From Pomacea canaliculata (Eukaryota): 64,000 bases of DNA. A program made the translations under genes and the position numbers. This document shows, one piece after another, positions 2,942 through 62,341 of the stretch; within the stretch, counting starts at the first letter, position 1, and every line of letters starts with the position of its first letter. Where the stretch lies: NCBI RefSeq assembly GCF_003073045.1, contig NC_037593.1, positions 29,393,367 to 29,457,366 on the forward strand, read 5' to 3'. The notes beneath the pieces are model-generated. The model was not told the origin of the DNA, ran no database searches, and saw nothing but the letters and a program-made list of their open reading frames with translations.

Positions 2942-3235
2942 GTGTTCACCAGCAACCATCCGAGTGAAGATGACAAAGATGTGAGGCGAGTGTTAGTGTT
3001 ACAGTCAGTAAGTGTTCAAGTTGTCCAACAAATCTGTTCAACAGGATCGTGGGCAATAAAAATAAACTTCAGCCTCCTTCTCACCACAATTAAACGTCTC
3101 TCACCTCATTCTGATGTTTGTCAGAAACTTTACAGAAATTTGTCTTCTGTCTTACTTAAATGTCCTCATTGCAATTGTGAAGAAACTGAGTTGCATTTCG
3201 TGTTCATGTGCTCAAAATACAAAAATCTACATTAG
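2942..3235 (+). mobile_element. Second retrotransposon RT-tail fragment, lying in SULT intron 1
   Basis: ORF ...CQKLYRNLSSVLLKCPHCNCEETELHFVFMCSKY has the same zf-RVT-like motif (C..C..EE.E.H....C) as 1016-1372. Confidence 0.4.
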
Positions 3236-3723
3236 TTGTACATTCCTGAACAAATGTTTTCAGAATCTTTCACTATTTCGTTTTGTAAATTTTATTTACC
3301 AGTAGCTAGAAAATAAATCCAGAATGTTGTATTTTTTTCTTTATGAAGCATTAAAGGTTAGAGAGAGTTTATAATTTTCAAATGTTTGTGCTTAATCTGT
3401 TAATAACAAAATTTACTTTGGCAGTTTCGGTGCACCTTGTAATTTAATTACCTTTTAGTATTAGGCTATTTTTGCCTTTACAATTGTATTTTAAACCAAC
3501 TTTTGATCCCTCCCCCGTCCTTCCTTCCCCAAAATCGGTTATGGGCACGAGCCTACTGAAATAAAGCCATTGTTATTATCATTGATGTTTATTTCCTCAC
3601 ACCTCAAACTGATCCGTTTTGCTCAATCTGACGACTCTCCACAATTTGATACCTCTATTTTTGACTCCTTCTTGACTCCTACAGATTGTCAGACGCCTCT
3701 CACCTCAGAGTCGGACATCTTAC

Positions 3724-3895
3724 CTGATTTAGGATAGGTACACAGCAGGATGTCATCGTGTCGAAGCTCCATGTTGCGCAGGTCAGTGATGTGTTTCTGC
3801 CACTCTTCCGTGGTAGGTCGGAAAATAGGCAGAGGAAGACCTTCTACCAGACAGAAATTTGGGTCAGGCTGCAAGCCTTCATCGTTTTCCGACAT
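3724..3895 (-). CDS. Cytosolic sulfotransferase (SULT family), coding exon 1. ATG at 3895..3893; an alternative in-frame ATG lies at 3928.
   Basis: Translation MSENDEGLQPDPNFCLVEGLPLPIFRPTTEEWQKHITDLRNMELRHDDILLCTYPKS ends in the PAPS 5'-PSB motif TYPKSG. Donor TCAG|GTAAGA, phase 1. This exon joins exon 2 to complete the Gly of YPKSG-THW. Confidence 0.7.
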
Positions 3896-6750
3896 TTTGA
3901 AAGTACTGTCATGCTCCTGGCTTGTCATTCCACCTGAAGATATACTTCCGATCGCTCTCCGGTAGAGATTGAAATAATACAGTGTCGAGCTTACTTTTAA
4001 ATTCCGTTTATTTACAGTTTGCTGCTGGAAGATCTTTTTTAAAAACTTCCTTTCAGCCGCTGTCGGTAGTGGGTCTCTTGTGTCTGATGTACGGTGTGCG
4101 ACAAGCATCCACTGTTATAGATGTCTGGTGATAGGAAGTGTGATCACGTGACATCAATTTGTTGCTTTGTTTGTTGTTGTTTTTCTCTCTCTCTCGTAGT
4201 TTTGTTAACTAATCTCCCACTTCTCACCACAAGTCAACAAGTACTGTCCTGGGTCTACCTCTTTAATCTTGTGCCGGCTGCTGGTTCTGACAAGGGCGAA
4301 ACATCTACTGTACAGTCTTACACCAGGCTACTCAATGGGATGCAGTTTCTGCCTCTAATCTCTCTCTCTCTGACAGTTTAAAATCTCGTTTCCACACCAC
4401 TGTGGCCCCCCAACCGTCTCCATCTCTCCACACAAGCCACAGGGCACACGTTCGCTGGACATCCGATACCTTTCCCAGTCTGTGCTGCACCTGTGTACCA
4501 CTCACGTATACCCTCTAGCACATACTCTTGTTTGCGCTTGTTTGTAAATCCGTTAGTACAGACCTTGACTGTCCTAGGCAAGTGGTCTACCTGTATGAGC
4601 GTTGATATCATTCATACATACTCAATATACATATTTAAATTATTTAATTTCACGTAAGTTTACTTATTCCCATTTCCCATCTTTCACAGGCAAGAAGATC
4701 AATTGTGGTTCATACACAGATCATATATTCATATAAATCTATGTAGGTATAGTGTAGGTGGTGAACCTTTTATCTTCCAAGGGCTATAGTCTAATATGTT
4801 TAACATCATTTGCAGTACAAAAATTATCTGTTTAAAACTTAGTCTGCTCTGTTTGGTCGAGCTGCAGTTTGCAATGTGTACAATCCTAGCCTGCCTCTGT
4901 TGTCCTCTGTAACCACTATCTGCTTTTTTTTAGATTAGGTGAGCGAAAATTATGCTTTGCCACTATGAAAAACGTCGCAAAACAACTGTTTGGAGTCTGT
5001 AAAATATTTGTTTATAATTAGAAAAGTCCTAGAGGAGCCAGAGTATATAGTAATAAAGCCTTTTTCTCCTAATGCACATGCACCAATAAACTCATAAAAC
5101 CAAATAAAATTTTACCAGCCAAAGTTTTTTTCATTTTCTCATCCTTTGGAGTTCCATAAAAGGATAATGTTGAACTAAGTCCACAGCAATGTCGACGGTG
5201 CTTTTTTTTATTATTATTATTGTTTTATGAACCCATGGTAGAAGATCGCTGATTGAGCCGGTATCCAACCGGAAGTGGCCTAGCCTCGGTTTAGGGTGAA
5301 GACCATCCACACAGGCTGCAGACAGCTAACGAGAAAAATATTATAGGTGTCTTTACCATCTTGTACTTGTATGTGTCCTGTCTATCCTGTAGTACGCGTC
5401 CCTTGCTTGTGCCTTTAAATGCATATTAGTAGTCACTTAATGTACATTTCTGTTGCCATAGTCTGCTCTGCCTTGCCTTGAAGCAACATTGATGTCACCT
5501 CCCAGCCTGCAAGTACTCTTGGGTCCCTCATGGGACCTCTTCGGGAAGAAAGTTGGGTCCCTCTCGGGTTTTGGAGGCGGGACCCTAAGGGGACCTCGTA
5601 CATATGTGTTTAAGTTCGGGTTGTTCTGCTGGGGTGTAAATTTTATATATAACTGGTTAAGTTTGGCTTAGTTGAAAATGATATTCACATCGTTTGCTTT
5701 GACCAACTGCTACACTGACCCTAAATAAGAAATCCCTCCCTAATGTCGGGTCACTATCTAATTGGATTGCTTATGTAATATCGTCGATTTTCTTTACTGC
5801 ATTTATGCTGGAAAAACTGTAGGAAAAATATTTCATTCAGATTGTTTCTTTTTAAGCTTTTTCTTCTTGTTCGTTTAACTGTAGAAGGTTAATTTAGGCG
5901 TTCACCTAAGTTTGAATTTAACATTGTTCTAAGCGAGATCACTTATGAATCTCTTTTTTAAAACGTGTGAGTGTTGGGGGGGGGGGGATTGTGACAAAAT
6001 TTGTGCAGCAAGAAATATATAATATTATCATAAATGTAAAGAGCACCAGAAAGTATAGCTCACTGATATAAGACTGTGCCACATTCAATGCATGCTGCAT
6101 GACCCTGTTCCCTTTTCTTTATTTTAACCTCCCAACACTAGATGCAATGTTTTCTTGAAAGCCCATTCCCCCTCCCACAAAACACCTCCTCCTATTTGAC
6201 TTATTTGATAAACACAAACATTCTTATTTTACGGTTTTCTAGTCTCTCGTATGTGTGTGTGTGTGCGCGCGCGCGCGAGTCTATGTATACTGCGTTCGCC
6301 TCTGCATACCTCGGTCGTAATTACTTTTGCAAGCGCTGATAAGTGTGTGCAAGGGTTCATAATAGCACTCAATGAAAGTGAGAAAGATTCTAGGTGTATG
6401 AGCGATCGTGTGCATACATTCATGCGCGTAAAGGTTCGATCGTGATTTCCAAAAAATATATTTGTCAAACCATTGTATAGTGCCAGTAGAGGACAGAAAT
6501 AAACAACAGCTTCCTAAATCTCAACACAGATAAATAAATCTCACTTCACTGTCATCTCGTTCTATAATATGTGCCTCACATCAGTCTGAGGTCTCTCGTC
6601 TCAACCTGACGCCTGTCTGTTGTCACTTAGAGGTTTGATAACTATTTTCCAGGGAAGTAAATGATTAAATACAAACAGCGCTGTTGATAACTAGTTGGCT
6701 CCCTTTAATTGCTCGACTCCCGAGCCATAATTTGTCCCACACCATAAAAT

Positions 6751-7734
6751 ATGGCGGACGTGTGGCAAGAACTCGAGGCCGTGATCAGTGAAAATCGTCG
6801 AGAACTGTCACTCATTGGGCAAGACGTAAGCAAACGAATTGAAAAAGCGGGACTAGACCCACATATTTTCCAGCTGGTCAATCTCAATCTTCTTGACATC
6901 TCACGTACGCAGCTTGATCGAGTACCAGACGATTTGGGGAACCTGATTAACTTGACAAACCTAACTCTGCAAAATAACGCTTTGGTATCACTCCCTTCGA
7001 CTGTCGGTAATCTTGTAAAGTTAAAGTTTCTAGACCTTTCTCACAACAAAATAGAAAGGCTTCCGGATGAACTGTCAAAGCTGAAAGAATTGCAGACATT
7101 AAAAGTCAACGTGAATCAGCTGACCGACTTCCCAGATGTTTCAACGCTTACGAGTCTTCACATCTTGAACATCTCCCATAACAAGCTTTCAGCTTTGCCT
7201 GATGGTATATGCAGTGAACATCTCGTTCATCTAAGTCAGATCAATGCAAGTAATAACCAGATTACCAGTCTACCGTCAGAACTTTCGTCGTTGCCACATC
7301 TTAATTCGCTTCATTTAGCTAACAACCAACTGCAGGAACTTCCAAATGAACTCAGCGAATGCACAAAACTGAAGGAACTGGTCGTAAATGGAAACAAAAT
7401 CAAGGACAGAAAACTTTTAAAGTTTACAGAACAGAATTCTTTAAAACAGATAATGACATTTCTGGCAACTGCAATGGAAAAAGAGGCAGCAACAGGAGAT
7501 AAGAAAGACAAGAAAGCGAAGCAAAAGAAGAAAAAGAAGGGGCCACAAAATGATAATGTTGAGGATCTGGCCAGAAATATAATATCAGTTCTTCATTTTG
7601 CTCCTGATGTGGGTGTGGTGGTGAAAGTAGAAGCCAAAGTATCAGATGTCAGGCCATACGTGGTTTGTTGTGTGCTTCGTGAATTAAACTTTAAAAAGTC
7701 ACTCAACATGTTCAAGAGGTTTATTACTTTGCAG
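6751..7734 (+). CDS. LRRC47: LRRC47 (leucine-rich repeat-containing protein 47) orthologue, coding exon 1 (ATG 6751)
   Basis: N-terminal LRR array (LxxLxLxxNxL repeats). Translation ...ELSECTKLKELVVNGNKIKDRKLLKF...VRPYVVCCVLRELNFKKSLNMFKRFITLQ aligns with human LRRC47 [26 protein letters not shown]...VRPYIVGAVV...LKRFLTSQ. Donor GCAG|GTAAAT, phase 0. Confidence 0.85.
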
Positions 7735-8185
7735 GTAAATATTTCTTATAAAAAAGTGTCATGCTTTCAAGCATAAGTTAAACCTTATGTTTCTGGATAA
7801 TATTTGTAACCAAGAAATCCCAATACTAGCACAACAGTAAAAGGAGTAAAAAGGAAAAATGATGACTAGTTGCCATATGAAAGATGTTTGTCCTCATTAA
7901 TGTAATGTTTTTATAAGCCAGCCTACATTTTTATTATATGAACTGATATACGAGCTTGGCTTGTATTTTACTTTCCTTACTTTGTTTCTGTCATTCTGGA
8001 ATGATGATCTTGTGTAAATGCAGAATACCTGCTGTACTTTTGTGGGGATAAGTAAAACAAAAATCTTTTTCATAAAATAATAAAAATAAAGAAGAGAAAA
8101 TATATTCAGAATTAATATTAGAAGGGTTTTTTTCTTTTTTGCTTATTCAAGGATGTCATTTTACTTTTTTACTTTCTTGTTTCAG

Positions 8186-9114: not shown

Positions 9115-9228
9115 AATGTGACTAAACCAGAAGCTTTCTTGTATCATGCCTCGTTTTAGTTGTTAATCTGAAATGTGACTAAACCAAAAGCTTTCTTGTA
9201 TCATGCTTCGTTTTAGCAGTTAACTGGA
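9115..9228. repeat. Tandem repeat, 2 copies of a roughly 57-bp unit (aatgtgactaaaccagaagctttcttgtatcatgc...), lying in LRRC47 intron 3
   Basis: Two adjacent near-identical copies seen directly in the sequence. Confidence 0.8.
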
Positions 9229-10225
9229 AAAAATCATCTGCCAGCAGTCCAGGGATATTAGTTCGTGGTGCTATGTAAATCCAAGCCAGTTGCCTGATCC
9301 TAATCAAAATTTCTGGGAGCACACCATTTGACTAGAGAAAGATTGTGAACTATGTTTGGTTTATGCATTTTGCTCTGAAACATTGTATTTTAATGTTTCT
9401 AAGATGTTATAAGTTATATTTACACATCACTGACATTGGCATAAATTCATTGATACCATATAAGAGAGATAAACACACATACATACACTGAACCAGAGCT
9501 TCGCCAATTTCATTCTCGGAACAGGTACCTCATTGCACTGATGCCACACACAGTTTTACATGTATTAATATATGTAATTCATAAAACAATGTCTATACAT
9601 CAGAGAACAAGCTCATGATCATTAATGTGTCCTTTTTGTGACTGGATCTTGAATCAAATCAGTAATTTTAACTGAGTGTCTGAAAACTGAAAGTTTTACC
9701 TGAAGTTCTGAAAACCCCTTGCAATTTATGGATGGGAAACACGGGTCAGAAATAGCTCCTGAGAAGAGAGCCTAGCCATTGACAAAGCAAAAATTACCAG
9801 GTGGCCTGCTAGTTTAAATGTACATAAAAATATTGGCTGTTTTATTGAATGCAACCTTAAATGGGAAATTTTCAAAGAACTGGTTTAATTTATTACAAGA
9901 TGCTATTTTCCAGATTTTTTTTTACAAACAATAACAGTTCTATCTTCTCTTCAAATGACAGCAGTTTAGTGCTTAATTAGCTTTGGGTAGCATTTTCACT
10001 TTTTTTTTAGTAGATACTTCATAGAAATGGAAGTGCCTATAGCACAGACCTTTTAAAAGATAAGGGAAACTTAACCAGGTAATTTATAATACCTTTTTTC
10101 TCACAATTTAAATCCAAGTTGTTGAAGTCACGAGTTAAAAAGATTATTGAAAGACAGTGCTTGTATATGTAAGCAAATACTTTTGCTTTTTCTTTACCAA
10201 TAACGTTTTGTTTTTTGTTCTGTGA

Positions 10226-10987: not shown

Positions 10988-11198
10988 ATCTCCAAGGATA
11001 CACAAAGTCTCCTAGTAGAGGTAACCAGTTCTGTCAGTCTAGATGTCTGCAAAAAGGTCATGGACACCTTGCTGAAGGAAACCCTTCAGATGGGAGTAGG
11101 TGTTGGATCTGGTGGTGGTACTGACATTGCTGCAGACAGCACCGATGATAAGCCAGAGGAGCAGGAAGATGTAGTTGCAGGCGGAGAGCAAACTGAAG
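10988..11198 (+). CDS. LRRC47: LRRC47 exon 5
   Basis: Acceptor ttttttttaacag|ATC. Translation ISKDTQSLLVEVTSSVSLDVCKKVMDTLLKETLQMGVG... aligns with human [35 protein letters not shown]. Donor GAAG|GTAATT, phase 1. Confidence 0.75.
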
Positions 11199-11375
11199 GT
11201 AATTTTCTTAAAGCACTGTGACAGAGGGCTTCACATTAGTTGTGATGATTTCTAATGAAGAACTGTCTTCAGTTATCAAAGTCAAGGTTTGTCCAGATTT
11301 GATTATTCAGCAGTTTCTATGTAATACTGCCATGTGATAGAAAGTGATTTTTTTTTTCCTTTGTTCTTGTTTCAG

Positions 11376-11521
11376 GTATAAAGCATGCTAATCTACGCCT
11401 TGTTGTTGAACAAGTCAAAATTGTAGACGAAGAAGGGGGACTGAAGGTTTTGTACCCATCACGCACAGATCTTCATGAGGATGGATTTGATGTTATCAGA
11501 AACTGGAATCAGGATGGATAA
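11376..11521 (+). CDS. LRRC47: LRRC47 terminal exon (stop TAA 11519..11521)
   Basis: Acceptor ttgttcttgtttcag|GT. Translation (G)IKHANLRLVVEQVKIVDEEGGLKVLYPSRTDLHEDGFDVIRNWNQDG* aligns with human [26 protein letters not shown]. Total CDS 1680 nt, 559 aa. Confidence 0.75.
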
Positions 11522-14500
11522 TATTTCATTGTACTGTCACAAATTAGCAACGTAGACATTGTCTTTGACTACTTCACCTGAACAGCAATGTTACAAATTT
11601 GGCAGTTAAGGTTATTTTTGTGAACTGCCCTTTTTCAGAGGTGCCCTTATTTGGGGATGTTTAATTTTCTTAGCTAATCAAAAGACCATAAGCTCACTGT
11701 CCAAGCAATGCTACCTGTTTTTTTTTACATTAGGCTTTGATCTTGTCATCAGCATCAGCCTTCTTAGTTTTTTATTATTATTATTATTATTAAGGCAAGT
11801 TATAAGGGCTTATCATTGAGATGAAGTTGCTGTCCATGGTTAAATGCAAAGAAAGAGACATAGTAATGGCATAAATAAAATATAGACGATATGTGCTTTA
11901 CTATCACAAATTAATCTGTAGAGTTTTTGAAAAGGTGGAATCACAGAAGGTGTTCTTTTTGAAGAAATTTTGATAACAGTTTTTATAAGCCTTTTACTAT
12001 TATAAGAACAGTCGAAAGCGAGGCAAAGGATGTCAGAACCACATAGGCCAACTGAAGGGGGCTGCCCAAACCTGGTCCGCTCACAAGGTGTTGCGGCCCC
12101 ATGCTCCTCGAGGAGTAACAAGGACTAAACTAAACTTTATTGTTATAAGGAAGTAGTTCCTTTCACTTTTCAAACGTCCGTAAGTGATATTAAGATTCTG
12201 TTCAATATTGATTTCAACCTGTGGGGATAGTGTACAACATAAGATGATAAAATCTTCTACATTCTTCAGCAGCATTCTTCCTAACACTCAAACGTACTTG
12301 CAAATACTTACATGATGGTATGATGCGCAGGTATATTGAGTGTTGTCCACTGCAGTTCACTCCACAATGGACCAGCAGTCAGTGATTTCAGCTCTTGAAA
12401 GAGATACTGCCATTTCTGCTTGCATGGAAAATAATTTGTCTGATGTGACCAAGATAAAAAATCTATAATTTTTGAGAATAATTTGATGGAATTTTTGCAG
12501 TTTTATGTTTAGGTTCCTTGATTTAAAGGAATGATGATGTTCCAGTTGATGTCATTGTAAAACTGGACATTATGCCTTAGTTTTGAATTTTTTTTTTATA
12601 CAATTTTATTCTATGCCTAGATAAGAAGTTTGGTTACTGCATTGGGTTATGAAAAAAATTATGGCATCTATTGGTTCAAGCTACCTTGGTAGTACTAAAT
12701 ATCAGGGAGAACAACTGTCAAAAGCACAGGCCACAAAAGTCTTCATAAATTATAAATTATTCAATTTAGACTATAACCAGATTTATAAGAGTATAGCAGT
12801 ATATCAAGAATCTTAAATTTGCAACCAAACAACATTTAAACCTACAAACCCATCTTTTTTGGGCAAGATTTCCCAAAAACTTACATTTTATTTTGCAGCT
12901 TGCCAAAAAAAAAGCTTTGATTGGTTCAGATTTTTCTCTAGTTTTAGTTGTGGTTTGAAAAAAAAGTTCAGTTTTTCTTTTTTTATGTGTGAATGGGGAG
13001 TGAGGTAAGGGTGGGTAGTGTTATAATGAATAGGAAAAGTGATGCAATAATTGCGATAAAATTTGCTGAAGATCAGTTAGCCTTTAACTATACCTTAATT
13101 CAACATTCAGCTTATACTTCATAAGCTTTCAGAACACCAGAGTTTAACAATACAAAATATTTTTTTAGTTGTAAATTTAAAATGTAATACTATGATTGAA
13201 TTTTGCTCAATAGATTTCTAAGTGGAGAAGTTTCATGAGGCATTCAGTAGTATGAGCTTCTTATAGTATACTCCTGAAATTTGTATTTGTACTTTTAAGA
13301 TATTTGAGATGCAATACAAAAAAAAAAAAATCCTATTATGCTATATTGCTATTAATATTATTATGTGATTCATTCTATTGGCTTCTATTGTGGTGGTATT
13401 TAAAAGATAAAGAACCTGATGACTGTACTCTTTTCTGTTTTATTCATAAGCATGATAGCATCTGAATCTTAATTTACAAAGTAGTGTAAGTGCTGCAATT
13501 ATGTTGGTTTTTTTTTTTTTAAATGGCTTGAAATCCTTCTGTGAAACCACTAAAACCAATCTGTCATGTAATCACTCGTGCCTCTCATTTAATTTTGTAT
13601 TCTTTATTCGATGCATAAAACCATGAGCATATATTTATATATAGCATGGTCTCAACCAAGATTGTCAGTCTTTCAGATTTAGAAAGACAAAATTTTGCAA
13701 GCACTGAAGCAGAAACTGCTGTACTGCTCTCATTAGTCTGAATCACCAGTAAAATTGAACCAAAAGTCAGACATGCAATTAAGTTTGAAATTGCTTTCAC
13801 ATAGGGCAGTCATCGGCCTGTAGCAAAGCTAAAGAGTGATTCTTTTTTTAATTGTATACGTTGACCTATTGATTGGATTGATCTCAATTCTTACTTCTGA
13901 TGTCACTCAGAACTTTGAGATACTAATGAGACCTTGTTCAGTTGGTAAGCATGCATGTGATATTGCAGGAAATTAGGTCTTGATCTCTTTCCTAATCTTA
14001 GGTGAGAACAGGAATGTTAAAGACATGTTTGTAATGAAGGGAAACAGCGTTTTTGCTCAGATTTTATAAATTAGCATCTTGTAATGAATTAAACCAACTC
14101 ATTTCAAAATAAGTGCGCACTGTTGAGCCCGTCTATCTTCATTGTTTCGTGACAAACCTTTCTTTAAAATGGCTTTTACTGAGCACTTTCCATTGTATTT
14201 TGCATGCTTGGAGTAATGTATCTCACAGTAATGGAACATTAACAAGTTTTTTCCTTTAGTTGCATTTACAATTTATTCTTCAATCCACAGTTTGAACATG
14301 TGCCAACTTATAGTTTCACTGATTTCTGAAGTCAGAAAATATTTCTGTTTATGGCTAGTTTTTGTTTTAAATTTTTAAGGCAGAATATTTTTAACTACAA
14401 AATTATGTTCAAGTTTTACTGGTGTGCATTTTAAAAATAAAGAACTGCAGTCCCCATCATTTCTTTCTTTGAAATTATTAAAATTTATGAAAACAAATTA

Positions 14501-15392: not shown

Positions 15393-16050
15393 GTATGTGT
15401 TGACTTACTAATTTTGTATTCATCGTCTGTCTTATATATTGCTACTTTTTATATTACTTGGTAAAAAGTCGCTGGGTTTAGGTGAAGCAGTGTAGTAAAG
15501 AAATCGCATTCCCTTTTAAGTTTAAGTAGCCTGTCTTTGCTTACCCTTCGAACGCAACTTAAAGTGCCTAGGTCAGTGTTATTGAACAGAGGGGAGGAGG
15601 TTCGGTTACAGTCCATTGTTCTGTTAATGAACTAGCTTTAAGTGTTATTAGTTGTTATTTGAAGTGCTATTAGTGTTAGTCGTGAGTTATTATGTAGCAG
15701 GGTTGTCCTACCAAACTAGTTAACCTAACCAGTTAACTCCCGACTCGTTGTACTGGTTAACTCTCCACCCGAACGTTATTTTTCCCAGAATTCCTTCCCT
15801 TGCGTCATTTTATATCGTCATAAAATGACGCAACCATATTCTGATGACCATATTCTGTAATTCTGACGAGAATTACACCAACTATAGTACAATTATTTGT
15901 TTGTGATCATGGATGGCTTGAATGATGCAGCTTAATTAAATTAATAAGTTTCGTAGAATATCAGCACAAAGTACCGTTATAAATTGTCTTCTTAGTCATT
16001 TTTATGACTTTTTCTACACGTTGTCAATTGCCAGTTTATCTTTTTTGCAG

Positions 16051-16113
16051 TAAATACTTTGTCAGCAACGAAGCAATCAAAAAACATTTTCAAGGAAAAC
16101 CTCACAAAAGAAG
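16051..16113 (+). CDS. ZNF593: ZNF593 exon 2 (C2H2 zinc-finger completion)
   Basis: Acceptor tatcttttttgcag|T. Translation (A)KYFVSNEAIKKHFQGKPHKR aligns with human [21 protein letters not shown]. Donor AGAAG|GTACAT, phase 2. Confidence 0.8.
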
Positions 16114-45035: not shown

Positions 45036-46168
45036 GTTTGTGACCTCTAGTCTTCAGTCATAGGATAGATATTAAAACTACATAATAGAGAAAGTGAATG
45101 ACTGGGATGACGACATCTTTTTTTTTAATGCCATTACACATGACTGCCAGTTTGAGTAATTTTCCCCCCTTAATTAAAAAAAATTTTGTAATCAGTGGTT
45201 TGATGAACTCTTATAAATAATTGTTTTCTCTGTAGTGGTGAAGAAGTTTTTTTAATCTGGCAATCCTTTTACCATGAATCGTTTGAGAAGACCTGGATTT
45301 GATGAATTTGATAAACCTCTAAGTTTACCCGGTAACCCTGCTAGAATTCAAGATTACTCTTCCTCATAAGGTGCAGCCAAAATTGGTTGCCAGATTTAGA
45401 ACAGTATTTAAAAAAATAAAAGAAACTGTTCAGTGCAAGTGATGACTCAGGGGAGACATTCCAAACTTTTAGGGCCCATGCTTCAGTCTTGGAAATGTCC
45501 TTTCAATCAGTATGATTTAAGATATAGGGTAAATTGTGGAAGATTTTGTTTTGCATTAACTTTTATTTATGTATAACCCCATTTCTTAAACACTATTAAG
45601 AATAATAGTAAATTTAATTTATTGGGTGCGTGATCCCTCCATCAAAGGTTAGCTCAAAGCACTTGACAAAAAAAAATAGACAAAATAACAACACATACAC
45701 GGACACATACAACAAAAGGTGTGTTATGTCTGTAGAATACCACAAGGCAGAATGAAGAAAGATACATCTATATTTGCTCCTGGCTTTCTCAGTCCAGTTG
45801 AATTGTGAGGCTGCAAAATGCTCCTGTCCACATGACAGTTATTCAGCAAAGTAAAAGTTAGCTTGTATAGCTCCCTGTCCATGCCTGTCTGGCAAGCTTA
45901 AGGCATTTGATATAACCAGTCAAATGAACTATGTCAATTGTGACGTCTCCATGTTGAAATAGAATCAAAGCCATAGACGTGGATTGAAGGAGCACCACAA
46001 TCCAAACGAATGATGGCAGGCACATTAAAAGCACACACCAACACGAAAAAGACATCAGATAATATAATACCACAGAACACAACACCCACCAGCCAGTTAG
46101 AAGGGACATCAATCTTGTCAAATTGCTAAATCCTTTTTCATCTCTAACAATTTTGTGTGTGTACACAG

Positions 46169-46371
46169 CAACAGCGGCACATGAGAAATCAAAAGCAGCC
46201 GATGCTAGTTGTGGGAAGATTTTTGCAATGCCTTGGGTACTACTTGACCCTAAGCACAACATGTGTAAGATCTGCATGGATGCTAGCATTGATTGCATCT
46301 TGTTAGAGTATGGTCACATGTGCAAAATGTGGGAAGCGTCTGGCAGACAGTACATCACTCTTGTCAAATGA
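46169..46371 (+). pseudogene. Decayed tandem duplicate of the terminal RING exon (pseudo-exon)
   Basis: It is near-identical to 46620-46861 and includes the acceptor tgtacacag|CA. A roughly 10-bp deletion (ttgacatgta) and a roughly 18-bp deletion (tgtcccatctgcagacag) remove the last RING Cys ligands. The translation ends ...[35 protein letters not shown]. Confidence 0.65.
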
Positions 46372-46619
46372 ACTGTGTTGATTAAGATGTCTCCATGTTG
46401 AAGTAGAATCGAAGCCATAGACATGGATTGAAGGAGCACCACAATCCAAACGAATGATGGCAGGCACATCAAAAGCACACACCAACACGAAAAAGACATC
46501 CATCAGATAAGACAAAAATACAACAGAACATAGCACCCACCAGCCAATTAGAAGGGACATCACTCTTGTCAAATTGCTAAATCCTTTCTCATCTCTAACA
46601 ATTTTTTTTTTGTACACAG

Positions 46620-46861
46620 CAACAGCGGCACATGAGGAATCAAAAGCACCCAATGCTAGTTCTGGGAAGACTTCTGCAATGCCTGGAGTACCACTTGACC
46701 TGGAGTATGACATCTGTAAGATTTGCATGGATGCTAGCATTGATTGCATCTTGTTAGAGTGTGGTCACATGTTGACATGTACAAAATGTGGGAAGCGTCT
46801 GGCAGACTGTCCCATCTGCAGACAGTATATCACTCGTGTCGTCCATATATTCCGATCCTGA
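46620..46861 (+). CDS. RNF34/RFFL: RNF34/RFFL-like terminal exon encoding the C3HC4 RING finger (stop TGA 46859..46861)
   Basis: Acceptor tttttttttgtacacag|CA. Translation (A)[79 protein letters not shown] matches human RNF34 [49 protein letters not shown] almost residue for residue. Total CDS 1167 nt, 388 aa. Confidence 0.85.
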
Positions 46862-50623: not shown

Positions 50624-51070
50624 TTACTTTTGTATATGGCTGGAAATTTTCTTCCTTCGCCACTCACAGATATTTCCATATTCACACATGCCACACTTCC
50701 ATGCCTCTTCTACTTCTACTCCTTCACATTCTCTCTGTCCATGCCAAAACTCTAAGGAATGCAGAACTGTCTGCCACATCCAATCTTCCTCTTCCTTGAC
50801 TTCCACATGACCAATCAAATCATGTGTGTCTTGGTGAACGTATTCAATAGACATAGAGCCAATACAAACCAGACTCTGAGCAGTGGAGAGCAACAGAGAA
50901 AAAAGGTTTCTAAGAGAGACTGTTGACATTGGCAACTGGTCCATGTGCTTTATAATTTCATCACTGAGAGGCAAGTCAGCTGAATCTTCAAGGCAAAGCT
51001 TCTTCAAGAAGAAATCTGCTGACATATTCCCCTTAACTAAGTTGTCCCACAATCTCTTGTAGATTTGCAC
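50624..51070 (-). CDS. EXO5: EXO5 terminal exon carrying the C-x2-C-x5-C Fe-S cluster motif (stop 50624..50626)
   Basis: Acceptor gtgcttttaaaatttcag|GTG. Translation VQIYKRLWDNLVKGN...IGSMSIEYVHQDTHDLIGHVEVKEEEDWMWQTVLHSLEFWHGQRECEGVEVEEAWKCGMCEYGNICEWRRKK aligns with human QVSLYKYIFDAMVQGK...[29 protein letters not shown]...[36 protein letters not shown]. Total CDS 1164 nt, 387 aa. Confidence 0.85.
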   Translation of the reverse strand: MQIYKRLWDNLVKGNMSADFFLKKLCLEDSADLPLSDEIIKHMDQLPMSTVSLRNLFSLLLSTAQSLVCIGSMSIEYVHQDTHDLIGHVEVKEEEDWMWQTVLHSLEFWHGQRECEGVEVEEAWKCGMCEYGNICEWRRKKISSHIQK

Positions 51071-51680
51071 CTGAAATTTTAAAAGCACTCAAAGCAGAAT
51101 CAAAAACAAACATAATGTACAAAAATTAACATAAACATGCATGTTTCTAGAAACTATATTTGTTAACCAGAATAATTTAACAAGGGCATCTCTTGAATGC
51201 AAAAGGATGCCCAGAGCAGGGTCCAATGGTGTGGTGTAGTTGCCGCCCTATGCTTCACTGGGGGGTGATTAGGAACAAGAAGAATCTCTTGAATACACAC
51301 ATGAATAATAATGATATTTATTTATAGCTCACTTTCCCCACCCTTACATGAAGACGCATGGGCACACACTATCAAAGGATTCAAATGTATCTTACAATAT
51401 CATTGTCCAAATATAACTCTCTCACAAAATATACACAAGGGAACAGGAGAAGACCACCAACAGTCCAATAAAATCTCTCACGCTGAGAAAGGAACATGTC
51501 AGTTCTAAAATACAAACCGAGACCTGAATCTCAACAGCAATGTCAAGGTGACAGGCATTTTAGCCACTGCACTACCAACTGTTTCAGATGCATTTGTACA
51601 TATGCTACTAACTCCACCTGACACATGAGCTGATAAACATTTCTTGAGTTTAAGAATGTTAGTTCATTTTTACTACTGAC

Positions 51681-51967
51681 CTGGAGTGCATTTTGTTTCG
51701 CTTGAGCCACCCCTGGAAGTCTTGTGCTTTTCCTTGTCTTCAATTCTAGCAGATGAAGACTGTAGGTTTTTTCATCAAAGTGGAGCTCATCAATAATTCC
51801 AAACAGCATGTCGCCGGTGCCAAGGTCCCCAAAGATTGGGACTTCTCTAGCTTTAGCAATTCCAGAAAAAAATCCTCTCATGGCCACCAGCAAATTTAGA
51901 ATGTTCAAGGCCCATTTGTCAGTGTTTGATGAAATTTTGACATCCACAACATCGTGAGTTTCTAGTT
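51681..51967 (-). CDS. EXO5: EXO5 exon 4 (nuclease core, DELH motif)
   Basis: Acceptor gctgttattgcag|AA. Translation (E)LETHDVVDVKISSNTDKWALNILNLLVAMRGFFSGIAKAREVPIFGDLGTGDMLFGIIDELHFDEKTYSLHLLELKTRKSTRLPGVAQAKQNALQ aligns with human [31 protein letters not shown]...[53 protein letters not shown]. Donor CAG|GTCAGT, phase 0. Confidence 0.8.
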
Positions 51968-52743
51968 CTGCAATAACAGCATAAAACTAATACAACAGTC
52001 ACACCATAAACTAAATTGTTTCATCATTTAACTTAAACAGAAAATCAGTGCTTCATGATATTGCTAACACACTGGAAATGTCGGGAACAAATCACACCAT
52101 TACATGGGAGAGTTACAGGGCTGAGAAACAGGCAATATGCAAGAAACAGCCAAATTAAAAATAAAATAAAATGGTTCTTTATCCAATGCCTTAGTTTTTG
52201 CTTTTGTCGTAATGTCATGTTTGCTGATACTTATGTTTCCTGTATGGTTGACTGTCAGATTGTAGACTTTTGTGTGCAGTTCCCCGAGTCTCATCCACAA
52301 GGGGAAATGTGCTTTACAAATTCAATTATAATGGAATTGGTGTTTCACACCAAGGCAGTAACTAAAGTTACATCACATCAAAGCAGCCAACCCTGTAAAC
52401 AGGTGCCACTTGCAACAAAAGAAAAGTATGTTGTAGATGACATCTGAACCCAGGACAGCTATTCCTCATTGTATTGATGACAAGTGCTAACTGTTGCACC
52501 AGGGTGCCGCTGTGAGTTATGTGGGAGCCAAGACTGGTGTGTGTGTGTGCCCCCAGATCTTTAGTACATTGATTTATGTGTACAATGACTATTAACACAT
52601 TAAAACAAAAATACATAAATTCTTTGAACCACACCACCTCTCATACCTTCAGGCAAAAGATCCCAATTGGATGCTAAGACATACAAATGCACATATTTTG
52701 TAACATTTTCATTCAAACCATGAAACACTTTCAACAAACCAAC

Positions 52744-53011
52744 CTCTAGCATAATGAAGTGACTTTCCTTTTTTGACTTCCTCTTTATCTTTAACAGACA
52801 AAGGCACGTCCCCAGCCTCAATCTCCTGCATATCTGTCAACCCTGGCTCAACCCCCATCATTCTATACTGCAGTTGCTGCTCACACCATAGCTGTTGTGT
52901 GATGTCTGTTACACAGAGGTAGCGAGACCTGCAGAACTGTATCAAAGGAGGTGGTGCCTGCTTACACACACCTCTTTTAGTGCTTAAGATTTTAGTTGAT
53001 GAGCCATTTAC
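52744..53011 (-). CDS. EXO5: EXO5 exon 3 (N-terminal Fe-S cysteine, conserved YVTD...WCE block)
   Basis: Acceptor ttatattattttattattag|GTA. Translation VNGSSTKILSTKRGVCKQAPPPLIQFCRSRYLCVTDITQQLWCEQQLQY...SLHYAR aligns with human EXO5 ...[40 protein letters not shown]...SIHLAR. Donor AGAG|GTTGGT, phase 1. Confidence 0.8.
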
Positions 53012-53474
53012 CTAATAATAAAAATAATATAAAACCATCATCTAAATAAAAAAGGATCAGTTCGTGATTCTGCTGCAATAACTTCCAACAGTGAAGTTTC
53101 TACAAAAGCTTAATAATGTTGCCTATACAAAAGTACATTCATTCATACTTTCATAAGGTGCTGTTGTATTTGAAGGAAGAAAAAAAAACCTTCAGAAATG
53201 AGTCTAATTACTGTTATCCATATCTGTTATCTTAAAAGAGTTTGTCTCCATGGCAAACTCATAAATAAATGGTCTTGTTTACTTTTATAAAACACACATG
53301 GATATAAAAACCTTTGAGTAACATAATACAATAAGTTAATAACATTGCCACATATACTATAAATACACACACATCAATCTAAAAATATTAACTCAGATGT
53401 ACATACAGAGTCCATGCACTAACAAAAGAAAGGGCAAGGGAGATTGCATTAAAGCCAATTACAAAATTTAAGAC

Positions 53475-53557
53475 CTGCTGCTCAGACTTCTGAAAATCTT
53501 TGTTGCTTTTATTATTTTTAAGTTCTAGTCCACTTGTTTCATCATGCTCGTCAATAC
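53475..53557 (-). CDS. EXO5: EXO5 exon 2. An alternative donor would put the 3' end at 53463.
   Basis: Acceptor gattactttttcag|GT. Translation (G)IDEHDETSGLELKNNKSNKDFQKSEQQ. Donor CAG|GTCTTA is phase 0; the alternative TTT|GTAATT lies 12 nt further on. Confidence 0.5.
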
Positions 53558-54156
53558 CTGAAAAAGTAATCAACAAACAAATGAAAAAATGCAAATGAAG
53601 ACAAGGTCTACAAATCTTTGAAGTTCAGACATGTGGCATCTGAAAAAGTATTCATTCGTGTTGCTGACGTGGATTTCTTCATTTCAAATGTAAAAAAAAC
53701 TATTTTGTTCAAAACGTCCTAACTGCCATTGTTAATTCCTAATTAGCGTTAATTCGTAATCAGCAATAGAAATCGGTAGCTGCTGAGTACCGTTCGCTAA
53801 AGAAGCCAGACTTGAGAAAAAGAGATTCACTGCTATTGTGCTAACAACTGCAGCACGAACAGCTAACACACGCATTATTACCCATCACACAACATCAACG
53901 AGACAAACATGCAATCAAACTTATCACGCATGCATTCAGAAGCTGTACAAGCTATAATAACGAAGTAGTGACACTCCTATTAATCCAGACTTAAACAAAA
54001 CCCGGCAAAGAAAGCCAACAGAACTTTCGTGACACCACGAACTATATATACACACATGTATACGCCCATAGTGATACGACTTTCAGCATCAAGGAAACGA
54101 CTACACGATTGTGCAAAAAAATACATGTACTTATTAAACAACTGATATATTCTCAC

Positions 54157-54235
54157 CTCCATCTATCTTTATCATGGATGATTCATCTAAATCACTCCAG
54201 TCTTCTTCGTCAGCAATGTTTGTCCGTGCTGACAT
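54157..54235 (-). CDS. EXO5: EXO5 (exonuclease V) orthologue, coding exon 1 (ATG 54235..54233)
   Basis: Translation MSARTNIADEEDWSDLDESSMIKIDG. Donor GGAG|GTGAGA, phase 1. An ETS-like CCGGAAGT lies at 54263-54270 just upstream. Confidence 0.6.
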
Positions 54236-54641
54236 TTTAAATATCTCTAACCTCGCGCTTGACCGGAAGTGCAACAAGTTAGGCTCTCGTTGCCACTTGG
54301 TAACATATTAATACGCACATTTCAAAGTTTTCTTCAATAAACGCAACATTTAAACTAATTCTATGGTATATTGATACAAATTTTATAAGATAATGAGTAT
54401 CAGATAATATGTAACTTTATTTGATTGTCTACAATTTAGATTTTTATAAGTTATCATGACCTATATTGTAGCCGAAAGCGTCATCGTGTGTGTAAGTCGG
54501 CTGCGTAGGGCAGGCATGCAGTAGCTGCTCACAAGGAAGGGCAGCAGGGACACAAATGGCATTTGGGTGAGGATTTCCATCTTCTGCCTTCTGAGATTGT
54601 TTTACCTGCATGGTGGGAGATGTTTCTAAGTGAGATACTTC
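54236..54641. promoter_or_regulatory. Head-to-head (bidirectional) promoter region between EXO5 (minus strand) and the downstream plus-strand gene
   Basis: About 400 bp separate the two divergent start codons (54235 on the minus strand; 54642 or 54666 on the plus strand). An ETS-like ccggaagt sits at 54263-54270. No TATA box is obvious. Confidence 0.5.
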
Positions 54642-54665
54642 ATGCTGTCTTTGTATACGAATGAC

Positions 54666-54870
54666 ATGGAAACAAAACTCAGTTATCGAGCATCGAAGAA
54701 GGGTGCCAACGGTGCTTCAACCACGGCTTCAGTCAAGAAAGTAAAGCGGAAAAAGAATAAAGTTAAACAGACTGTGAAAGGCAGAGAATCAAAAGAAAGT
54801 GGAATTCACAGTCCAGATTTCGACATCGAGACCCGGTTGGAGGGAGATGGAACCTTAACTGATGTAACAG
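54666..54870 (+). CDS. Exon 1 of an unidentified gene encoding a Lys-rich basic N-terminus. ATG is at 54666; an alternative ATG lies at 54642.
   Basis: ATG in good Kozak context (aatgacATGG). Translation METKLSYRASKKGANGASTTASVKKVKRKKNKVKQTVKGRESKESGIHSPDFDIETRLEGDGTLTDVT. Donor ACAG|GTAAAA, phase 1. Confidence 0.5.
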
Positions 54871-61691: not shown

Positions 61692-62341
61692 ACAGCGAGT
61701 TGTCTCCCGCCAGGAAGGTGACAAGGCTACCTCTCCTTGACTCCAAGATGTCCCTCACCACTCGGCCTTCCGACCAGGCCTGCTACAAGCTGAAAACGTC
61801 ACTATCGATGTCACCACCGCAGACGCTGCCGCTGTCGACGATCCCCGCAAGCGAGAAAACGTCCGTCGACGAGGTCACTACCCGCGTAGCCACCATGGCA
61901 GTCAAAAAGCCTCAGGCGAAGTCTCGCATCAGAAGCCACATCGGAAAGTCGACCCAAGCGATCAAGTCGTCCCGAAACAGACCAAAGCAGGGCGATGCAG
62001 CACGGCAGCAGCAGCAGCGCCAGCAGCAGCACGAGCCGGAGGAAGCATCAGCCACGTTCAACGAGACGCTGCGGTGGGAGTACGTGGTGGAGAACACGGA
62101 GGAGGAGCGCGAGCGGGTGGCGGCCTACAAAGTCAACCGACGCCAGCGCTACCTGGCGGCGGCGCGGGCCAAGGGACTGCAGTGGGCGGTGGAGCAGGCC
62201 GCCCCGTCCCCACAGTCCGAGGACTCCGGAGTGGAGACTGCTTGCGCTTCGCCGGGGAGCTTTGCTGTCTACAGAACTATGCCGAGAATGCGAGTTGTTC
62301 AGAAGCAGAAAGCCTTGGCAGAGACTCTTGTGAAGTGTTAG
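61692..62341 (+). CDS. GC-rich terminal coding exon of an unidentified protein. It is tentatively joined to exon 54666-54870 (phase-compatible, giving 285 codons).
   Basis: Acceptor cttttttgcag|AC, entered in phase 1. A 216-codon open frame ...SPARKVTRLPLLDS...AARQQQQRQQQHEPEEASATFNETLRWEYVVENTEEERERVAAYKVNRRQRYLAAARAKGLQWAVEQAAPSPQSEDSG...AVYRTMPRMRVVQKQKALAETLVKC* ends at a TAG. GC content here is much higher than the surrounding AT-rich DNA. I did not recognise a family. Confidence 0.45.

Follow-up and report, generated by a model that had tools for sequence, protein, structure and literature searches.

The stretch of DNA analyzed here (the window) spans 64 kb of the genome of the golden apple snail, Pomacea canaliculata, and sets the genomic scope of what follows for EXO5 of this species. 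On its minus strand, at 50624-54235, the window carries a gene for EXO5 (exonuclease V). Five coding exons, spliced from 54235 to 50624, give a coding sequence of 1164 nt with an unbroken frame that specifies 387 amino acids and a stop. An earlier note, written from the letters of the DNA, had put forward this same span, exon and intron count, and protein length, and spliced assembly reproduces all of them. We conclude with high confidence that the locus is an intact, ordinary EXO5 gene and that its structure is largely ancestral. In itself, the snail gene is an unremarkable orthologue of a DNA-repair nuclease that has been studied in depth, and its sole novelty is that the protein collection we searched holds no matching model.

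The gene lies in DNA of ~36-37% G+C. Exon 1 (54235..54157, 79 nt) opens with the ATG at 54235..54233, the first in the open reading frame, and specifies residues 1-26 plus one further nucleotide, including the acidic N-terminal motif WSDLDES, which Littorina and Babylonia also possess. The exon-1 donor, GAG|gtgagaat, begins intron 1 (53558..54156; 599 nt, phase 1), which interrupts the protein at IDG|GID. Exon 2 (53557..53475, 83 nt) encodes a variable stretch that is predicted to be disordered, and its donor is uncertain. Intron 2 (53012..53474; 463 nt, phase 0, junction EQQ|VNG) ends at the strong acceptor of exon 3, tatattatttttattattag|GTA. Exon 3 (53011..52744, 268 nt) contains the codon for C97 (52885..52883) and finishes within the conserved HxARELE motif, where intron 3 (51968..52743; 776 nt, phase 1) splits the E codon of LAR|ELE (YAR|ELE in the snail). 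The PD-(D/E)XK core is encoded by exon 4 (51967..51681, 287 nt), with the catalytic codons D203/E204 at 51791..51786, E218 at 51746..51744, and K220 at 51740..51738. Intron 4 (51071..51680; 610 nt, phase 0) follows at LQ|V, which in the snail reads ALQ|VQI. Finally, exon 5 (51070..50624; 447 nt, including the stop codon TAA at 50626..50624) supplies C365 (50695..50693), C368 (50686..50684), and C374 (50668..50666). All four introns are of the GT..AG type, three of the acceptors possess a good pyrimidine tract, and tandem repeats within the introns are trivial.

The identity of the protein emerges from profile, sequence, and fold comparisons. Specifically, the product matches the Pfam family Exo5 (PF09810) with 158.4 bits, the gathering cut-off being 25 (E 4.8e-46), and also matches PDDEXK_1 weakly. 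A phmmer search of the PDB sequences returned only human Exonuclease V (7LW7-7LWA), at E ~1e-53 over residues 66-378; the kinship with human EXO5 claimed in the earlier note holds over this range, with the key residues aligned. AlphaFold2, given an alignment of 52 sequences, produced a model with a mean predicted local distance difference test (pLDDT) score of 83.6 and a predicted template modeling score of 0.79. Its core lies mostly above 90; residues 1-66 are disordered, with pLDDT below 50 at residues 1-49. When the model is compared with the PDB by Foldseek, the top four matches are the four human EXO5 structures (E ~1e-22, template modeling (TM) score 0.86-0.91 normalized on the target). 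Far weaker matches, to Cas4, AdnAB, and MGME1, come next (E 5e-6 or weaker).

The residues on which an EXO5 enzyme depends are in place. Candidate ligands of an iron–sulfur cluster, C97 (in WCEQQ) and C365, C368, and C374 (in CGMCEYGNIC), are present and invariant in an 11-species alignment, as are D203 and E204 (IIDELH), K220 (LELKTRK), Q239, and Y243. E218, also in LELKTRK, is kept in 10 of the 11 species and is D in amphioxus. Across the 52 sequences of the larger alignment, most of the iron–sulfur and catalytic residues are invariant or at least 90% conserved, D203 and K220 being invariant there. The four snail cysteines align to the iron–sulfur cysteines of human EXO5, and D203, E218, and K220 are the equivalents of human D182, E196, and K198. 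In the human enzyme, D182 and E196 bind metal (PMC8710748), and the cluster is bridged by N- and C-terminal cysteines (PMC8710748; PMC12004521). The earlier note had judged the gene to be a functional-looking orthologue on the strength of intact cysteines and the DELH motif. Both are found in the sequence and conserved in the alignments, and the Pfam match, the human EXO5 match, the fold, and the residues agree with a probably functional product.

Among homologues, 95 were found, nearly all with PF09810. The closest are "Exonuclease V-like" proteins of caenogastropods: Littorina saxatilis (P0001) at 52% identity, Batillaria (P0002) at 50%, and Babylonia areolata (P0003) at 46%, with a Nucella fragment at 58%. 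Other molluscs stand at ~40%, vertebrates at 35-39%, and fungi at 26-29%. The set includes crocodilians, turtles, a lizard, amphibians, and sharks; no bird or teleost EXO5 is among the 95. This gap could reflect loss in those lineages or merely the word-seeding limit of the search.

Snail and human EXO5 (Q9H790; PDB 7LW7-7LWA) share family, fold, and ~37% identity in the core, along with the four iron–sulfur cysteines, the D/E...E-x-K residues, the QVxxY motif, and a disordered acidic N-terminus bearing a (W/F)SDxxxS motif. They differ in gene structure: the snail gene has five coding exons, and human EXO5, as the earlier note had stated, has its coding sequence in one, which in every Ensembl v111 transcript is the final exon (PMC12004521). 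They differ as well in an insertion of ~15 residues that the snail protein carries after the WCEQQ helix (residues ~108-130, pLDDT ~62-66). Saccharomyces cerevisiae Exo5 (Dem1), the founding member of PF09810, belongs to the same Pfam family. The yeast enzyme is an iron–sulfur 5' single-stranded DNA exonuclease of the PD-(D/E)XK type that resides in mitochondria and is required for mitochondrial DNA maintenance. Unlike it, the snail protein has a strongly acidic N-terminus without any presequence-like segment. More distantly, Cas4, the AddB-AdnB nuclease domains, and MGME1 share the core fold (Foldseek E 5e-6 to 1e-3), and in Cas4 and AddB an iron–sulfur cluster likewise staples the N- and C-terminal parts. 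With identities of 11-15% and TM ~0.5, however, these proteins stand outside the Exo5 family and have other partners and other biology.

By homology, snail EXO5 would be a PD-(D/E)XK nuclease in which the N-terminal cysteine and the C-terminal CX2CX5C hold a [4Fe-4S] cluster. Like its human and yeast relatives, the enzyme would load onto free ends of single-stranded DNA and degrade the strand in the 5'-to-3' direction, an exonuclease action that may serve the repair or restart of stalled replication forks. We considered a mitochondrial presequence and rejected it, the N-terminus being strongly acidic; a nuclear or cytosolic role, as for human EXO5, appears more likely. We note that the acidic N-terminal motif, (W/F)SD(I/L)(D/S)(D/E)S.(L/F)L, is kept from snails to mammals (window 54200-54175, minus strand; residues 13-22). 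It sits in an otherwise unalignable disordered region, ahead of the portion of the chain that the human crystal structures show, and may be a docking or phosphorylation site.

Several points weigh against reading the locus as an intact, ordinary EXO5 gene. First, nuclease activity and iron–sulfur binding are properties that we infer. Second, a collection of 5.8 billion clusters contains no near-identical protein, the best match in it reaching 52%, and the model has no independent annotation; either the deposited annotation that supplied the neighboring LIAT1-family gene described below is without an EXO5 gene, or its EXO5 model is absent from the searched collection. Third, the four splice junctions are predictions from genomic sequence. 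The exon-2 donor, CAG|gtcttaaa (53475), is weak and departs from consensus at +3 to +5, which bears out the earlier note's doubt about this site. Before the first in-frame stop there are three more GTs in phase 0, for which the last exon base would be 53463, 53424, or 53403, and a poorer acceptor, aagcag|GCACCA, lies 54 nt within exon 3. If used, that acceptor would bring intron 2 nearer to its position in Littorina and Babylonia.

The gene could accordingly be EXO5 with a true mRNA that differs at the N-terminal end, through a different donor for exon 2, use of the acceptor inside exon 3, or omission of exon 2 from the transcript. The off-consensus donor and its three phase-0 alternatives would allow this, and neither exon 2 nor the opening 18 codons of exon 3 can be aligned with anything in relatives, both being predicted to be disordered. 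Against it, the chosen acceptors hold the best pyrimidine tracts, and a short exon 2 with a phase-0 intron after it is likewise present in the NCBI models of Littorina and Babylonia. We think such a variant rather unlikely, while giving it real weight. The other exon-2 donors would only lengthen the disordered N-terminal region and leave the intron count unchanged, and the alternative splice sites touch the N-terminal 70 residues only.

We compared the snail gene with the genomic loci of eleven EXO5 homologues. Ten of the proteins were placed on their own DNA by an exact spliced mapper that required identical translation and GT/GC..AG introns. For the marsupial protein, whose model is flagged as being of low quality, tblastn and blastn were used instead, and introns were projected on one MAFFT alignment. 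Coding exons number five in Pomacea and Littorina and six in Babylonia; three each in Mytilus and Nematostella; and two in the amphioxus Branchiostoma lanceolatum, the first of 1111 nt. Among vertebrates, the horn shark Heterodontus, the fire-bellied toad Bombina, and the caecilian Rhinatrema each have six, and the turtle Emydura has five. In the marsupial, the bilby Macrotis, tblastn finds at least six blocks. The vampire bat Desmodus has one, an open reading frame of 1131 nt whose translation is exactly the protein. The four non-mammalian vertebrates have 3' exon sizes of 105, 173, and 462-468 nt in common.

Two of the four snail introns recur at exactly the same place. Intron 3 occupies the same column (212), in phase 1, in Littorina, Babylonia, Mytilus, Nematostella, shark, frog, caecilian, and turtle, and the bilby keeps it as well (HLAR|g-gtaagg); among the species compared, only amphioxus and bat are without it. 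Intron 4 occupies the same column (313), in phase 0, in Littorina, Babylonia, shark, frog, caecilian, and turtle, and, judged by the ends of high-scoring segment pairs, in the bilby (RFQ|V). Mytilus, Nematostella, amphioxus, and bat lack it. If introns were placed at random, two exact matches with shark or turtle would have P ~1e-4, and one exact match with sea anemone or mussel P ~8e-3. The LAR|ELE intron dates to the cnidarian–bilaterian ancestor or earlier. All that the snail gene itself adds is confirmation, from an outgroup, of the old age of introns 3 and 4.

The N-terminal introns are harder to compare. In each of the four mapped molluscs, intron 1, in phase 1, follows the W/F of the acidic motif by 14-15 residues, and vertebrates have a phase-1 intron 21-23 residues past it. 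The two may be the same intron, in a region that is not reliably alignable. Only the three caenogastropods have a second intron in phase 0, and intron 2 looks specific to that group; because the length of the variable N-terminal stretch differs among them, placing it to the residue is impossible. Vertebrates carry a phase-2 intron in their own variable N-terminal stretch and a vertebrate-specific phase-1 intron at column 247. Within the caenogastropods, the Littorina gene has the same five-exon layout as the snail gene, with phases 1, 0, 1, 0, and in both Littorina and Babylonia introns 3 and 4 are positioned identically to those of the snail. Babylonia differs in having an additional phase-2 intron in its last exon and much longer introns. 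As a separate observation, intron 4 of Babylonia (locus L005, ~11390-12130) contains a tandem repeat in which the first codons of the next exon are copied, mostly ~222 bp apart.

Could the shared introns have arisen by independent insertion at proto-splice sites, (A/C)AG|G, instead of by descent? Both shared sites have AG|G exon context (GAG|g.. and CAG|GT.). Intron 4 is the more exposed of the two and counts to that extent against a largely ancestral structure: it sits at a classical CAG|GT proto-splice site and has no counterpart in mussel, sea anemone, or amphioxus, so that two gains are about as parsimonious as one gain with three or four losses, and parallel gain in gastropods and vertebrates is possible. 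Intron 3, however, has the same codon and phase in a cnidarian, a bivalve, gastropods, and five vertebrate lineages, and insertion would need to have hit that site many times independently; the low probability of random coincidence given above for the two introns together argues in the same direction. In addition, Mytilus and Nematostella are without any intron 3' of intron 3. Absence of introns toward the 3' end is typical of loss mediated by reverse transcriptase, and the pattern in these two species would be such a 3'-biased loss. Taken over both introns, we consider independent insertion improbable and retain common ancestry. In amphioxus, whose gene (locus L004, 2001-3760) has a single phase-1 intron at a unique position near the C-terminus, the ancestral introns were lost independently.

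The comparison corrects the assumption that vertebrate EXO5 is a single-exon gene. An interrupted EXO5 is the ancestral and prevailing state, and the derived, unusual form is the intron-free coding sequence of placental mammals; vertebrates other than placentals keep the interrupted gene. The earlier note had singled out the snail gene as noteworthy for its introns and useful for dating vertebrate intron loss, and had treated intron positions shared with vertebrates as the finding that would speak against it. Such positions were found, introns 3 and 4 lying at identical column and phase, and an interrupted gene is common, occurring in shark, frog, caecilian, turtle, and marsupial. The dating, for its part, rests on vertebrate sampling, to which a mollusc contributes no close outgroup. 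A stronger version of this view would make the snail gene unusually intron-rich and the single exon the general vertebrate state, with the snail introns being either lineage-specific gains or the key datum for dating. The uninterrupted coding sequences of human (PMC12004521) and bat, together with the lone, uniquely placed amphioxus intron, fit it; the five to six coding exons of shark, frog, caecilian, and turtle and the at least six blocks of the marsupial, all with snail introns 3 and 4, and the presence of intron 3 in sea anemone and mussel, leave it with next to no credibility.

A second gene lies head to head with EXO5 and bears on its orthology. This LIAT1-family gene (C0Q70_08312) is on the plus strand, with exon 1 at 54666..54870 and exon 2 at 61692..62341, both placed by exact mapping of a 284-residue protein (P0096). 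Exon 2 carries the LIAT1 domain PF27950 in precomputed Pfam annotation. A 213-residue open reading frame at 61700-62341 matches the P. canaliculata hypothetical protein C0Q70_08312 with 100% identity and 100% coverage; our local Pfam scan of this frame did not recognize the LIAT1 domain, and its identity comes from the homology search. The full-length match also assigns the window to P. canaliculata (Caenogastropoda, Ampullariidae). The divergent start codons of EXO5 (54235, minus strand) and LIAT1 (54666, plus strand) are separated by a spacer of 430 bp (54236..54665), which may be a shared bidirectional promoter region.

The arrangement recurs elsewhere. Precomputed gene calls place a LIAT1-domain gene upstream of EXO5, and divergent from it, in Littorina, horn shark, and Mytilus. 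In the loci of these species, the arrangement maps to L001 1-2588, L003 1-1015, and L006 1-1639. Compared with the first exon of the gene that lies upstream of EXO5 in Littorina and Babylonia, LIAT1 exon 1 of the window shows 45-46% identity, and the Babylonia gene probably belongs to the LIAT1 family as well. When the upstream open reading frames of shark, mussel, and snail were searched by tblastn against the 2-3 kb flanks of tetrapod and bat EXO5, only snail-to-snail matches appeared. This search is blind in tetrapods, owing to the excessive divergence of LIAT1 N-termini and to flanks that extend only 2-3 kb; LIAT1 was not seen in flanks of that length in frog, caecilian, turtle, and marsupial, where similarity search is uninformative. 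EXO5 and LIAT1 apparently form a very old divergent pair that predates the mollusc–vertebrate split, and such ancient microsynteny would suggest shared regulation.

Conservation of the head-to-head neighbor argues for positional orthology of snail EXO5, and the orthologue status of the gene is thus backed both by intron positions and phases and by LIAT1. That the locus is a pseudogene, or a non-functional paralogue with recognizable motifs, is a reading that the missing annotated protein and the weak exon-2 donor might invite, but a frame open over five exons with canonical splice sites, intact catalytic and iron–sulfur residues that are invariant in 52 homologues, a confidently predicted core, and a conserved LIAT1 neighbor that marks a positional orthologue make it very improbable.

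With the interrupted gene as the ancestral state, the question becomes when and how placental EXO5 lost its introns. The bat open reading frame of 1131 nt (locus L002, 3001-4131) is uninterrupted, compared with at least six exon blocks in the bilby (locus L011, 3001-19351). Bat coding blocks 3235-3364, 3363-3470, 3484-3644, and 3643-3944 align to four separate bilby exons, at 7399-7528, 9123-9230, 11191-11351, and 15750-16051, respectively. At the junctions, two pairs of blocks abut exactly and one leaves a 13-nt unaligned gap. Blocks that abut in the bat and are separate exons in the bilby point to precise removal of introns. In a mammal sample of bilby, bat, and human, the loss of all introns of the coding sequence falls between the marsupial–eutherian split and the last ancestor that bat and human share. 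The origin of the intron-free gene is narrowed to this interval because of the vertebrate series and not because of the snail gene. We note, separately, that the bilby gene (locus L011, 16043-19165) has an extra break within the last exon, which is 468 nt and unbroken in other vertebrates. The break may be an insertion, or an artifact of assembly or annotation in a record flagged LOW QUALITY PROTEIN.

One possible explanation, which we offer tentatively and hold at slightly less than even strength, is that placental EXO5 is an orphan retrogene; the alternative is intron loss in situ. According to the retrogene notion, a processed copy that arose after the marsupial split replaced an intron-bearing parent linked to LIAT1. 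The basis is that all of the ~5 introns in the coding sequence are gone together in bat and human and are kept in the marsupial. Chromosomal location may also speak to this idea. Human EXO5 presumably lies at chromosome 1p34. LIAT1 is named in human for chromosome 17, and the two genes would then not be adjacent. Location on different chromosomes would fit relocation by retroposition. The human LIAT1 gene is C17orf97 (PMC5581455). The linkage may, however, have been broken before placentals arose, because LIAT1 is unseen in the 2-3 kb tetrapod flanks. Among the papers searched, none connects EXO5 with retroposition or intron loss, and the 25 human orphan retrogenes listed in PMC3548309 do not include EXO5/DEM1.

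Beyond EXO5 and LIAT1, scans of the whole window for Rfam families and tRNAs were empty. On the minus strand at 45858-46749 lie two tandem copies of a ~451-bp unit, 88% alike (Tandem Repeats Finder score 1372); each unit contains an open reading frame of 146-148 residues that has hydrophobic stretches and no Pfam match. Also on the minus strand, an open reading frame at 1627-2307 encodes a sulfotransferase domain (PF00685, 2.9e-18) and is apparently one exon of a larger gene. Finally, a 341-residue open reading frame with leucine-rich repeats (LRR_4/LRR_8) lies on the plus strand at 6751-7776.

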